A DNA stretch of 64,000 nucleotides from Rickettsiaceae bacterium (GCA_021323225.1 JAJTCH010000003.1:96141-160140); one strand, 5' to 3'. Positions 34,769 through 48,861 are shown, counted from the stretch's first letter. The notes: a model not told the origin generated them from the letters alone. Numbers and translations: made by a program.

Positions 34769-37087
34769 TTATATAATTATTAATGGACTTTCCCCCTGTC
34801 TTGGAAATTTGGCAGCAGCAGAATTTTGAGGAGAAGCAGAAGGGGTTGAAAGTGACAATAAAAAATCTTTTGGCGAAAAAAGAGAACAGGCTGATGGTGA
34901 TAAGAGAGACCCTGACATTGAAGAATAATATTCTTTTCTTCCTTCCCCTCTTGGTTTTTCTTCATAATGCAATTCTTCCAAATAAGGAAAAATCTTTTCG
35001 CAATGTTCTCTAAATTCTTTTAGATATTCGCTGTCGAAAATTTCTGGTAATGTTTTTTTGAGTACGAGATAGGCCCCAATATCTAAATTGTTTTCTTTAA
35101 ATGTGGCCAAATCATGTGGCTGGTCTTCCATTATTTGCTGCAGATTTTCTATTAGTTTTTCCATCTGCTCTTCCCCGCCAATTAAGCTAGAAATTAGCTC
35201 GTTATATTGAGTATCAAGAAGTGATTTTTTTAATTCTGCCACTAAGCCATTAGGAAAAATAAAACTGTTATTGATTGCATCGGTATGAAATATGTTAATT
35301 CCATTAGGGCTGCTGCGCAAACGGTCTCCACCGCTATTTAATACCGGTGTAACAATTTTTTCGCAAAAGATGGGATATAATATTTGGGCGCAAGGATCAG
35401 TTATGAGGGATTGGAACAGGAAATTTTTTAATTGGGTGCCAATATTAGCGACGCAACCATCCCCTATGGTGTAAAACCAGCTGTTAAGCCTATCTAAAGT
35501 TCCCTCAATTTTAAAAAGATAAATTAGTTCACTTTTATTTTCGGCAAAAAGTTCTTTGAGTTTTTTTTGGTTTTTTTCGTTAATATCGGCATCAATATTT
35601 AATACGGCTTTAAAAAATTCCGTTACTTCACTATCAACAAGTTCCTCTTTTTCTATTTTTAATAATCTTTTGAACTCTGCCAAAATTTTCTCTTGTTTTG
35701 CTAGAATAGTGGGATCTTGCTCTTTGTTCGAATAGCCTGACTCTTCTTTTGATTCATCTGATTCTTCAAGACTTAATTTTCCAGGATTATTTAAATTTTC
35801 TGCGGCAATTTGAGGGCTGTTAAAATTTATCCAGCAATTATCAATTAACTTTTCATTGACTCTTTTAATTGGCGGTGCTTCATTTTCTAAATAAGAACTT
35901 AAGAATTTTACCGATGGCAGATTTGCGCCAGTTAGAGCACGAAAACTTTCATATTCCGATCCTGATATATAGATATATTTGTCTGTAGGTTTAAATCTGG
36001 ATTTTACTTGATCCTTGAATTCCGGATTAAGCAGGGATATAAAGCCATTAACATTGCCCTTAATTTCGTAGTAGAAAAATAAATTGTTCAAAGGAATTTG
36101 GTCGTAACCTTGACCGAATAATCTTCTTAATTTTCCCAATCCTTCTTCCGTTACAGAATTTTTTAATTCTGCATCACAAAGTAACTGATATATGGATTGA
36201 TATTTGCCATGAGTTCTGCTGCTGGCAATGTCTAAAATATCTTTTTCTTCTAGCCGCAGCTGGTTTTGAACTTTTTTCAACAACTTAAGAACAACGTCAT
36301 CTTCTTTTAGGTTAGAAATAAATTCCTTGATCATCGGAAGATCATCTGCCTTGTTGAGCATGTTTTTATTAAGAAACGCCTCAAACAGAGCGGCCTGCAT
36401 CGACTCATTATTTTGATACAAACCAATACATAGAGAGGGTATAAGATTGTTTGAGAGAATATAAAAATTTATGAAGAAATCGGCAATTTCATTAAAATCA
36501 TATTTGCTTTCGGTGAGTAAATTATCATCAATAATTTTTACGAGAGTTTCACTTTGTTCTTCTGAAGATAATGAGGGAAGATAAGATAATAAAACATCGT
36601 GATGTCTATCTTTTGGCAGTAAAGGAAGCGCTTTTTCAATTAGGTCCTGCAAAACAAGTTTATTCTTTCTAAACCATGCGGGCAGGGTGTAACCGAAACC
36701 TGTTTTGACTAATAATGGCAGTGCCTTTCTAATGAGAGTTTCAAAGTCAAAATTATTTTCCGGTGCATTTCCTTGGAGAAAATAGGAGAAAGCTATGTCA
36801 TATTTCTCCTCATCTATTAGCGGCAATATTTCTGTGGAAAAAATATCAAAACTAACATTATTTCCCGGTATTTTAAACCAAGGTCGCAAAAGTTCATCGT
36901 GATCAGATTGCGGTGTTAGTAATAACGATTTTTTAAGAAGCGGGAAAGTAAAATTATCTCCTAGATCTTTGATTAAAGATTTTACAACATCGCTGCGTTT
37001 GCTTTCATCAACTGCCTGCAATTTTCCTTCCAACTCTTCTTCGGATAGTAAATTAGCTACGACCGTTTCTTTTAATTCTTCTGGCAT
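34769..37087 (-). CDS. Member 1 (772 aa) of an unrecognised giant paralog family (W-x3-P-x-NN repeat, LYPNNE module, DGCVAN core)
   Basis: Shares colinear blocks with 40275..43991 and 45184..48861: LCIGLYQNNE.., YIYISGSE, CWINFNSP, ILAEFKRLL, IGDGCVANIGTQ, ITDPCAQILY, LDIGAYLVLKKTLPEI, CEKIFP. Confidence 0.7.
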   Translation of the reverse strand: MPEELKETVVANLLSEEELEGKLQAVDESKRSDVVKSLIKDLGDNFTFPLLKKSLLLTPQSDHDELLRPWFKIPGNNVSFDIFSTEILPLIDEEKYDIAFSYFLQGNAPENNFDFETLIRKALPLLVKTGFGYTLPAWFRKNKLVLQDLIEKALPLLPKDRHHDVLLSYLPSLSSEEQSETLVKIIDDNLLTESKYDFNEIADFFINFYILSNNLIPSLCIGLYQNNESMQAALFEAFLNKNMLNKADDLPMIKEFISNLKEDDVVLKLLKKVQNQLRLEEKDILDIASSRTHGKYQSIYQLLCDAELKNSVTEEGLGKLRRLFGQGYDQIPLNNLFFYYEIKGNVNGFISLLNPEFKDQVKSRFKPTDKYIYISGSEYESFRALTGANLPSVKFLSSYLENEAPPIKRVNEKLIDNCWINFNSPQIAAENLNNPGKLSLEESDESKEESGYSNKEQDPTILAKQEKILAEFKRLLKIEKEELVDSEVTEFFKAVLNIDADINEKNQKKLKELFAENKSELIYLFKIEGTLDRLNSWFYTIGDGCVANIGTQLKNFLFQSLITDPCAQILYPIFCEKIVTPVLNSGGDRLRSSPNGINIFHTDAINNSFIFPNGLVAELKKSLLDTQYNELISSLIGGEEQMEKLIENLQQIMEDQPHDLATFKENNLDIGAYLVLKKTLPEIFDSEYLKEFREHCEKIFPYLEELHYEEKPRGEGRKEYYSSMSGSLLSPSACSLFSPKDFLLSLSTPSASPQNSAAAKFPRQGESPLIII

Positions 37088-37210
37088 ATGGTTTCAATTT
37101 GGGGAATTTAAAATTGTGTAGTTTAATCCTGGTAAAATGTTTGGAGAATTTTAGAAAAGTCAATTAATCTATAAGTTTTATTTATTCAAGTATTTTCTTA
37201 TATAATATGG

Positions 37211-48100: not shown

Positions 48101-48861
48101 ATGACAGCTTCATTTCTCCTAACGGTTTGATTGCAGAACTAAGAAAATCATTTCGGGATGATAAGGGAAAACTTATAGCTAAGTATAATGACCTGGTAAA
48201 AGATTTGATTGGTGGAGAAGAGAAGATGGCAGAATTACTGGAAAGATTAGATAGTGATGAGTTATCCGAAGAAAAATTAGGGGATGATTTTTCTGATTAC
48301 GAAGCAAATAACATTAATATTGGGGTATATCTAATTCTTAAAAAATCAGTTCCGAGAGTTTTATGTAATGGATATTTCGATCAATTTAGAAAAAATTGCG
48401 AAACAATTTTCCCTGCTTTGGAAAAAATGTATAATGAAGAAAGAAAAGATGAGGCATTAACCCCTTCCACTAAAGTCTCAAGCGTATCAGCAATTGCTGC
48501 AGAGGATGTTAATCCATATATTTTTATCTTAACTGACAAACAGCTATCAAGAGCTGACATAACTTCTACTCAAAACAGCTTTTGTTTAGAGTTCGAATCA
48601 CTTTCAGAAATAGAAGAATTTTCCGATAATCCTCATAATGAGGAACTGATTGATCAATTTGAAAAACTTGGAGCAACAATATATCAGGGCATCGCTTATG
48701 ATAAAGATAATCCAAACTATTACCTAAAAATTGCTATACCCGAAGCTATACCTAAAGAACCATCAGATAAACTCAAAAGAGATAAACTTGTAGAGCTATT
48801 CGGGAAAGTTAAAGAGAATATTACAGATAGTTCACGAGGCGTCATGTCTGCTGAATTATAA
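45184..48861 (+). CDS. Member 3 (1225 aa) of the giant paralog family, with a roughly 130-aa C-terminal extension
   Basis: Same block order: WLEEPENNLSLDE repeats, LCHDLYPNNE, YLYISGKE, CQINFEDS, ILAEFKTLL, LGDGCVANIATQ (Cys codon about 47917-47919), ITDPCAQILY, INIGVYLILKKSVP, CETIFP. Confidence 0.7.
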   Translation: MKPELETKELETKELEVSSEALLKQEIELMDVSERSSFLKSYLKEPQNNFSFDFLIEAAASLRVEWEYRKVMEAWIEKPTNKINADYPRFLLKKHYNQGAKGYDYDYCSAIQSFFLVWLEEPENNLSLDEVKEISLSLSEYRDESLFVKWLKKPENNLSLDELKQKLSSVSEYQDNSLLLAWIEKPENKRKISFNSIIELSSNSDPDDEDDVNEIIEIWVEGRDFDFIQRQSLLNLDKENLFRIAGLWISSLPSEILYENFVKVISSDLLGSEYRNDVKKVVELCKGLGFPDTDIPNLCNDLYPNNEAMQIALLDAYTNLLRQKLRVMPPLKHSSFLESYLKDPKHNFSFDFLIETFSLSSDYRRKYDNILKVWLKKPENKISFNDLKGRLEKYFSQEKNQHNSREIYSFFLSWIKEPGNKIGLDEISFNSIKELSSDCGFEEDVFEEIITKWVRDRDFDFIKGQSLLVSEEDFVKIAVLWLCSLPPEILYENLVKVIGSNLIFNKYSAEDVEDICNYTSLTFPNILNLCHDLYPNNEMIQADLFNACIESEMFEKTEENLSIIKKFLSNLKQDDIALDFLRGIENELELSNLDILKIAEGRIHANYQSMARLLGKAKLEECVTKAGLKILKELFGSNISETATLSSIFSYYDIKDDMEGFISILNPEFHNEIIANFFLPEKYLYISGKERKKLKALTGKSLPSMHHLSSYLQRMVPPIPGLSDELISNCQINFEDSTIAVEKQPEILAEFKTLLSKSKAELTKEKVTSFFKKVLNLEGEISEEILAGFKELLAKSKEEQKDEVSDQEVISFFKKALNLKDEVSKNNQEKLLGILADFKELITKPEKDLTDQEVIISFLKKALGLEVKINEDNQTKLLDFFADNKNELVCLFQTKEGIGKFASCIQTLGDGCVANIATQFNLALYQSLITDPCAQILYSVFSQKIAPPILNGGGDNLTSDTAGINPLQAKIINDSFISPNGLIAELRKSFRDDKGKLIAKYNDLVKDLIGGEEKMAELLERLDSDELSEEKLGDDFSDYEANNINIGVYLILKKSVPRVLCNGYFDQFRKNCETIFPALEKMYNEERKDEALTPSTKVSSVSAIAAEDVNPYIFILTDKQLSRADITSTQNSFCLEFESLSEIEEFSDNPHNEELIDQFEKLGATIYQGIAYDKDNPNYYLKIAIPEAIPKEPSDKLKRDKLVELFGKVKENITDSSRGVMSAEL
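45535..45822 (+). repeat. Intragenic tandem repeat, 3 x 96 bp (32 aa: W-L/I-x-x-P-E-N-N/K..)
   Basis: Units start at 45535, 45631 and 45727. The 28-nt string accagaaaacaatcttagccttgatgag is identical in units 1 and 2. Confidence 0.8.
47422..47826 (+). repeat. Intragenic tandem repeat, 3 units of about 38-49 aa (ILA-E/G/D-FK-x-LL..FFKK-A/V-LNL..)
   Basis: Units start at 47422, 47536 and 47683. The other family members carry a single copy. Confidence 0.75.

Follow-up and report, generated by a model that had tools for sequence, protein, structure and literature searches.

What are the giant proteins encoded in a 64,000-nucleotide stretch of DNA from an uncultured Rickettsiaceae bacterium (GCA_021323225.1, JAJTCH010000003.1:96141-160140; hereafter the window), where three paralogous genes and the remains of a fourth lie between positions 34,769 and 48,861? 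The three proteins, which we call paralogs A, B and C, combine a variable, repeat-rich N-terminal part with a conserved C-terminal core in which a single cysteine is nearly invariant, and as far as our searches reach they appear to represent a family of undescribed modular proteins of uncultured, freshwater Rickettsiales-like alphaproteobacteria. The reading that we favor, and that as a whole we put forward only tentatively, is that they are secreted effectors whose core would use this cysteine in catalysis.

The genes are well defined. Paralog A (P0001; 772 residues; 34769-37087, minus strand) is supported by its open reading frame and translation and by BLASTP matches to paralogs B (P0002; 1238 residues; 40275-43991, minus strand) and C (P0003; 1225 residues; 45184-48861, plus strand). 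All pairwise comparisons give 35-36% identity (E-values of 2e-113, 4e-138 and 6e-122), with alignments that run colinearly across the C-terminal 700-830 residues, in agreement with a preliminary description of this DNA that had proposed three intact paralogs of one colinear architecture. These are not random open frames, because frames of 2.3-3.7 kb at 33-34% G+C are beyond chance; furthermore, a protein identical to A is encoded by a called gene on the Joint Genome Institute contig Ga0456370_0000038, and the window derives from a contig of 333 kb in that institute's metagenome 3300042904. The three genes have 33-34% G+C and a G+C content at third codon positions (GC3) of 0.25-0.28, compared with 38-42% G+C and a GC3 of 0.34-0.41 for uvrB, thrS, nrdA, purH, recN and yifB in the same window.

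The part that unites these proteins is a C-terminal unit of about 500 residues, larger than the 330 first supposed, that consists of two domains joined by a variable linker; in most homologs, the profile matches accordingly fall into two stretches. In A, domain 1 (residues 214-435; 35783-36448, minus strand) is delimited by the profile, by conservation and by a helical AlphaFold2 (AF2) prediction with a predicted local distance difference test (pLDDT) score of about 90. An acidic linker follows (residues 436-461; 35705-35782, minus strand), whose length varies in the alignment and whose pLDDT drops below 50 at model residues 222-245, and then domain 2 (residues 462-711; 34955-35704, minus strand), which carries the invariant cysteine. 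That cysteine lies in the motif D543-G-C545-V-A-N548 (35444-35461, minus strand). Alignment and hmmsearch place the two-domain core at residues 734-1208 of B (40368-41792, minus strand) and 525-1087 of C (46756-48444, plus strand), and by alignment the motif reads E-D-G-C1034-V-A-N in B (40881-40898, minus strand) and G-D-G-C912-V-A-N in C (47911-47928, plus strand). Paralog C further contains three tandem copies of a unit of about 40 residues, ILAxFKxLL..(D/E)EV.SFFKKxLNL (residues 751-880, with starts at 751, 789 and 838; 47434-47830, plus strand), which corresponds to the first two helices of domain 2 and is single in A and B. All of the core sequence blocks listed in the preliminary description are found in the three-way alignment, and those written GGEE, DIGxYL and CExIFP are confined to the three paralogs.

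This core is widely distributed. Among 1.84 billion representative proteins, a hidden Markov model (HMM) built from the three cores matched 190 clusters (formed at 50% identity) with E < 1e-3, including 94 with E < 1e-30, and none of the 190 bears a functional name. The order of domain 1 and then domain 2 at the C-terminus is shared by nearly all members, and the N-terminal region ahead of them ranges from 0 to 1300 residues. Conservation was read from 113 aligned cores that are 25-47% identical (residue numbers are those of A), and it converges on one site: G544 (97%), C545 (99%) and N548 (98%) are the only positions conserved at 97% or more, D543 is kept in 76%, and the motif takes the general form [LI]-x-D-G-C-[VAF]-A-N-I-[GA]-[TS]-[QH]. 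In one member, serine replaces the cysteine, a swap of the kind seen among nucleophiles. Other conserved polar residues are R291 (81%), E378 (79%), K509, K518, N584 (69%) and D588 (82%), to which the family-wide Y296 of domain 1 can be added alongside R291 and E378; many of the conserved core positions are hydrophobic. The cores of A, B and C share five invariant cysteines, not the three counted at first (C220, C418, C566 and C696 in addition to C545), and across the family only the cysteine of the D-G-C-x-x-N motif persists: C220, C566 and C696 are kept in 20-46% of members, and the commonest residue at position 418 is tyrosine (36%). Hence, of the two roles initially suggested for these cysteines, a thiol active site remains a reasonable reading, and a multi-cysteine metal site is unlikely because one cysteine only is conserved across the 113 homologs.

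The predicted structure is confidently helical. An AF2 model of residues 210-721 of A, based on a 21-sequence alignment, has a mean pLDDT of 85.2 and a predicted template-modeling (pTM) score of 0.80 and is all-helical with a disordered linker; domain 2 modeled alone from 39 sequences reaches a pLDDT of 91.8 and a pTM of 0.85 and comprises 14 helices. DSSP assigns helices only, with no beta strands in either model. In these models, a 7-residue loop ends with C545 and leads straight into a 16-residue helix; the helix after that one is followed by an 18-residue loop, which begins with a conserved N-x-G-G-D segment. The preliminary description could assign no known domain, and this holds throughout: neither by sequence nor by profile did the family match anything in Pfam, NCBIfam, PADLOC, PHROGs or the PDB chains, and Foldseek gave no significant fold match for the whole core against the PDB (best E 0.07, TM-score 0.20, to tetratricopeptide repeat (TPR)-like solenoids), for domain 2 against the PDB (best E 2.2, TM-score no higher than 0.24) or for domain 2 against BFVD (best E 1.1). 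Thus the structure prediction and fold search proposed at the outset yield confident models with no relative in either collection.

It is worth considering at this point whether the core could be a cysteine hydrolase, that is, a protease, deubiquitinase, deamidase or similar enzyme with a non-canonical catalytic partner. A near-invariant cysteine that follows a glycine at the N-terminus of a helix recalls papain, in which the motif is G-S-C-W-A-F where the family has D-G-C-V-A-N, and conserved aspartate and asparagine residues are present. Nevertheless, there is no conserved histidine, the highest listed frequency of histidine in any column of the 113 cores being 14%, and the models lack beta strands, a departure from the alpha+beta structure of all Cys-His hydrolase clans known to us; nor is any protease or deubiquitinase structure among the fold matches. 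We therefore consider a hydrolase of this kind improbable, and the classical Cys-His hydrolases (papain-like, CE-clan, OTU and transglutaminase-like) were rejected for want of a conserved histidine and an alpha+beta fold. Two further candidates were set aside on their motifs. Phosphatases of the CX5R type (PTP, SidF/SidP-like) would have arginine at +6 from the cysteine, where the family has threonine (58%), asparagine (19%) or serine (18%), and Fic enzymes are excluded by the lack of both an HxFx[DE]GNGR motif and a Pfam match in the family.

A different possibility was raised by the preliminary description, which tentatively heard in the motif pair DGCV..DIGxYL an echo of the NEL ubiquitin ligases (IpaH, SspH1/2, SlrP, NopM). 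In their general plan, the two groups are indeed alike: variable N-terminal repeats precede an all-helical C-terminal domain, a single critical (or, here, essential-looking) cysteine lies in a flexible loop without a catalytic histidine, each genome has several paralogs, and NEL proteins are delivered by secretion, as is predicted for this family. A leucine-rich repeat (LRR) protein is encoded next to paralog A, and one distant family member itself has LRRs. Even so, it is almost certainly wrong to see in the core a highly divergent ligase of the NEL type (IpaH/SspH/SlrP-like). No Pfam or NCBIfam NEL match occurs in 21 members, and PF14496 gives none at E <= 0.1 in A, B, C or the 21 cores. An alignment of seven NEL proteins was assembled from IpaH2.5 and six plasmid-encoded proteins 37-44% identical to it (from Serratia, Edwardsiella, Providencia and Sodalis, NopM of Sinorhizobium, and one from Bradyrhizobium). 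Compared with this alignment, hhalign assigns a probability of 1.3% to domain 2 and 0.3% to the whole core, in aligned stretches that include neither catalytic cysteine. The NEL signature is S-C-E-D-R(-V), with the cysteine, aspartate and arginine invariant in that alignment, whereas the family motif D-G-C-[VAF]-A-N-I has neither aspartate nor arginine after the cysteine; the DIGxYL half of the supposed echo is conserved at no more than 50% outside the three paralogs; and, up to E = 10, the Foldseek matches to either model include no NEL chain. The differences extend to the architecture, with LRRs in place of the repeats described below, one domain of about 300 residues in place of a two-domain core, and a type III rather than a (predicted) type IV secretion system, the present family being alphaproteobacterial. 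With hhalign probabilities of 1.3% at most, a different motif and no fold match, and hence no similarity of sequence, profile or fold, NEL identity was rejected. The 450-residue neighbor that had been put forward as a NEL candidate fares no better, as it is an LRR protein that hhalign relates to NEL with a probability of 1.9% and whose 'DGCV' cysteine is absent from its own homologs. Other bacterial cysteine-dependent ubiquitin ligases, namely SidC/SdcA (with the SNL domain) and the HECT-like SopA and NleL, have folds unrelated to eukaryotic ligases and are thus a precedent for the invention of such enzymes by intracellular bacteria. In SidC, an alpha/beta domain carries a Cys-His-Asp triad, and the HECT-like enzymes are bilobed alpha/beta proteins; the family differs in having no conserved histidine, and neither type is found among its fold matches.

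The N-terminal parts are built from two elements that vary in number. The first, with the signature W-[LI]-x-x-P-x-N-N-[LI]-S-[FL]-[DE] (tryptophan in 92% and the first asparagine in 96%), has a period of about 32 residues where it is tandem. An HMM built from the window's own copies recognizes eight in C, five strong and two weak in B, and one strong and one weak in A, at per-copy E-values of 1e-12 to 1e-16, which upholds the W-x3-P-x-N-N repeat of variable number proposed earlier. The copies of A are at residues 62-93 (36809-36904, minus strand; E 3.7e-14) and, in degenerate form, 109-125 (36713-36763, minus strand; E 1e-4). B has three adjacent copies at residues 539-570, 572-602 and 617-647 (42051-42377, minus strand; E 5e-14 to 2e-15) and further ones at 31-61 (43809-43901, minus strand) and 230-258 (43218-43304, minus strand). 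In C, a block of five at residues 34-203 (45283-45792, plus strand) and a block of three at 332-436 (46177-46491, plus strand) both give E-values of 6e-12 to 1e-15. The second element is the module LC..LYPNNE..Q..LF...IIK.FIS.L, which forms the first 110 or so residues of the conserved core, and thus opens domain 1 of A, and recurs upstream of it in B and C. As the preliminary description held, it is present in one to three copies: hmmsearch finds three in B (residues 116-200, 316-434 and 734 onward), one full and one truncated in C, and one in A. The two extra modules of B (42690-43646, minus strand) are seen both in the hmmsearch domain table and by BLASTP. The two elements have been duplicated jointly. 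B consists of three super-repeats of W-repeats and module, 35-40% identical among themselves, followed by the core. C consists of its eight W-repeats, an old internal duplication in which residues 113-316 match 335-547 at 44% identity (45520-46824, plus strand; BLASTP E 1.4e-42), the core and a 138-residue C-terminal extension.

We know of no described repeat with this signature, and no Pfam repeat family matches it in A, B or C, the only Pfam match being a sub-threshold one to SWIRM (E 0.0017, against a cut-off of 28.6 bits). In its period of about 32 residues, its variable copy number and its position N-terminal to a putative effector domain, the W-repeat resembles helical repeats such as TPR, Sel1-like and HEAT/ARM, from which it differs by the signature and by the absence of a Pfam repeat match. 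Its sequence pattern suggests helix-turn-helix units; the AF2 models cover the core only. The W-repeat marks a sub-family: 16 of 150 members carry it, and all but one of its 44 copies precede the core. In its stead, one distant member has LRRs and TPRs.

Phyletic mapping, as the preliminary description had proposed, extends the family well past the window to the 190 clusters, with the located copies in Rickettsiales-like freshwater metagenome-assembled genomes (MAGs). Among GTDB species representatives, scanned with a pattern from an alignment narrower than the 21-sequence one, there are at least 10 distinct family loci in at least 8 MAGs, which are labeled Rickettsiales, Rickettsia or Alphaproteobacteria or belong to this lake lineage under a wrong label. 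Of the 120 matches listed for a degenerate DNA pattern of DGCxANIG, most arose by chance and 3 were true, one of these being a locus already known. MAG C8_D7_3 has three family copies, compared with three and a pseudogene here, and member P0030 sits in another MAG of the lineage, GCA_964461905.1. The UvrB protein of the window is 70-78% identical to those of MAGs labeled Rickettsiales or Alphaproteobacteria, some with plainly wrong species labels; in related MAGs, family genes are missing from the uvrB flanks, where the island is therefore not syntenic. Other approaches returned little: a genome scan with motifs particular to the three paralogs had no match, and in a word-indexed homolog search a single-protein query matched itself only, the 21-sequence profile matched five entries and the repeat region none. 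Likewise, no paper was found that contains 'DGCVAN' in its full text, and a keyword search of the literature gave no relevant paper.

Within this family, A, B and C are nearest to each other, with 44-47% identity in the core as compared with at most 42% to any other member. The local expansion is therefore specific to the lineage, yet old, because even these nearest relatives are only 44-47% identical; likewise, the duplications both of genes and within genes show 35-47% identity and are thus old. The fourth copy lies between B and C (44265-44824, minus strand), with its pieces spread across three minus-strand reading frames (tblastn E 8e-13 and 4e-5; profile matches at E 4e-13 and 1e-12 in different frames). 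It matches residues of about 360-540 of A, that is, the end of domain 1, the linker and the start of domain 2, and both the part with the cysteine motif and the N-terminal half are gone. The pseudogene had been drawn at 44250-45057; the wreck is real within the narrower limits given here, and the rest of that interval is without support, a candidate extension to 45022 not being significant (E 0.09). The earlier picture of a family expanding and decaying in situ is thus borne out in that the paralogs are mutual nearest relatives accompanied by one wreck, and needs correction in that both the gene duplications and the internal ones are old.

The genomic surroundings bear on where such proteins might act. 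Flanked by yifB (20652-22178) and uvrB (49197-51281), a block of about 27 kb (22.7-48.9 kb) contains the family genes and also encodes three ankyrin proteins, the 450-residue LRR protein, a 351-residue protein that is weakly LRR-like and a TPR protein; homologs elsewhere are found near ankyrin and LRR genes and insertion sequence elements. A VirD4-type coupling protein of a type IV secretion system (T4SS) is encoded 7 kb from one homolog, and proteins 73-93% identical to this copy (L083) were found in 7 of 8 family-bearing reference MAGs, as well as in MAGs whose UvrB is closest to that of the window. Multi-copy, fast-evolving large genes in a low-G+C island, with one copy decaying, could alternatively belong to interbacterial polymorphic toxins or to an anti-phage defense system rather than to host-directed effectors. 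We consider this very unlikely. Polymorphic toxins have a conserved N-terminus and a variable C-terminal toxin, whereas the polarity of conservation is reversed here; trafficking domains (Rhs, PAAR, CDI or any other) are absent, and PADLOC and PHROGs give no match; and no small immunity-like gene is conserved downstream, the neighbors of B and C being the convergent TPR and uvrB genes. More generally, no neighboring gene family, immunity-like or other, recurs at most family loci, and only the 450-residue LRR protein is shared, at three loci.

Several copies per genome are typical of effector families, and variable N-terminal repeats, a conserved cysteine core and paralogs in a lineage that probably bears a T4SS and is rich in eukaryote-like repeats together form the pattern of such a family; its general logic is that of known modular effectors. 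If the effector reading is right, the proteins would be delivered by a T4SS into a eukaryotic host cell, the variable N-terminal part (W-repeats and LYPNNE modules, or LRR and TPR) would set the specificity for target or location, and the two-domain helical core would be the enzyme, with the cysteine of D-G-C-x-x-N as its nucleophile. At the N-terminal end of a helix, the cysteine would have its pKa lowered by the helix dipole, and the asparagine at +3, together with the conserved D543 and D588, could assist it in place of histidine, as far as sequence conservation can indicate. Because the cysteine has no histidine partner and there is no beta structure, thioester or transfer chemistry, for example the acceptance and passing on of ubiquitin, a ubiquitin-like protein or an acyl group, would fit better than a classical Cys-His hydrolase. 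One can go further and imagine that domain 2 founds a new class of cysteine-dependent transferases (ubiquitin or ubiquitin-like ligases, or acyltransferases, working through a thioester without histidine), with an all-helical fold unrelated to NEL, HECT, RBR, SidC or any solved structure and with the protist hosts of a widespread, Rickettsiales-like freshwater lineage as its targets; in this full form, the proposal is unlikely.

Several observations weigh against the effector reading. The single conserved Cys-Gly-Asn cluster could be structural or ligand-binding rather than catalytic, and a serious rival is accordingly that the proteins are non-enzymatic scaffolds or adaptors in which the cluster caps a helix, acts as a redox switch or forms a ligand site. 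A protein that is helical throughout and rich in repeats, with many hydrophobic residues among its conserved positions and with TPR-like solenoids as its best (non-significant) fold matches, is what one would expect of a scaffold. Conversely, a structural role rarely keeps a cysteine at 99% and glycine and asparagine at 97-98% while the domain drifts to 25% identity, the sole substitution seen is serine and not a hydrophobic residue, and the 14 helices of domain 2 pack into a compact globule rather than a solenoid; we regard the scaffold reading as doubtful. The secretion route is also open to objection, as T4SS genes are absent both from the window and from the 10 kb to its left on the source contig. 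For the sequence past the right end there is a 10-kb contig of a different run, relevant only if it is colinear with the source contig; it stops 83 bp upstream of recN and likewise has no T4SS gene. Furthermore, the genome is not strongly reduced, having kept TonB/ExbBD, purH and a flagellar-type gene, so its lifestyle may not be obligately intracellular. No Shine-Dalgarno sequence is recognized upstream of any of the three genes, which is frequent in AT-rich Rickettsiales-like genomes. Finally, the statement that the modeled fold has no known counterpart in the PDB and BFVD is provisional, because all-helical folds are the hardest case for Foldseek.

Other genes of the island deserve mention in their own right. 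At its left end, two adjacent giant paralogs of 1105 and 1111 residues carry C-terminal ankyrin repeats (22732-26049 and 26115-29450, both minus strand), and about 100 residues at the N-terminus of the second resemble the LRR region of the 450-residue protein (34%, E 5e-9). A 359-residue ankyrin protein (29863-30942) and a 604-residue open reading frame (31156-32970, plus strand), an orphan in the island without a Pfam or NCBIfam family match, come next. The 450-residue LRR protein itself (33110-34462, minus strand) has N-terminal LRRs that resemble those of XopL and plant NLRs and a C-terminal domain without assignment. Its homologs in two other MAGs (8740-10215 in L088 and 1813-3621 in L082), in which the cysteine of 'LDGCV' is not conserved, adjoin family genes, at 65 bp and convergent in the former and at 6.4 kb in the latter, and this recurrent neighborhood of LRR protein and family gene may be functional. 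Between A and B are the 351-residue protein with a weak LRR match (37383-38438, minus strand) and a 577-residue protein with N-terminal TPRs (38525-40258, plus strand; Pfam E 3e-21), the C-terminal parts of both being without a family match. Outside the block, the gene for a Fic-domain protein lies about 8 kb upstream (13809-14858, minus strand; Pfam Fic E 5e-19, NCBIfam SoFic-type adenylyltransferase E 4e-17, with a possible C-terminal helix-turn-helix), and its product could be another effector or a toxin-type regulator. Directly beyond uvrB, a 1503-residue open reading frame with a TTG start (51698-56209, minus strand) has no Pfam or NCBIfam match and a G+C content of 43%, above that of the island genes.

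As to the lineage, about 80 MAGs of freshwater origin (L221-L300), from the lakes of several continents, encode VirD4-type proteins 73-93% identical to the L083 copy. Many of them carry clearly wrong species labels such as 'Rickettsia typhi', 'Rhizobium sp. Q54' and 'Lentimonas sp.', all of which points to a single Rickettsiales-like lineage of lakes that is abundant but poorly classified. A RecN protein identical to that of the window (62284-63957, plus strand; L213) is also encoded on a contig of the unrelated run Logan SRR35179664, so the same or a nearly identical organism has been sampled elsewhere.

The effector families of intracellular bacteria have revealed new chemistries, among them the NEL and SidC ligases, phosphoribosyl-ubiquitination by SidE and AMPylation by Fic proteins. 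With 190 clusters, a confidently predicted fold without a detectable relative, one near-invariant cysteine motif and several copies per genome in an abundant, uncultured freshwater lineage that carries a type IV coupling protein, the family described here is a good candidate to extend this list. The analysis also brings to light a new repeat, W-x3-P-x-N-N, that its sequence pattern suggests is helical, and it offers a concrete target, since the question comes down to one cysteine in a domain of about 250 residues that should express easily. If that cysteine is not catalytic, this would be one of many uncharacterized metagenomic protein families; if it is, the family would add a new fold to the thiol-based enzymes with which bacteria manipulate their hosts.

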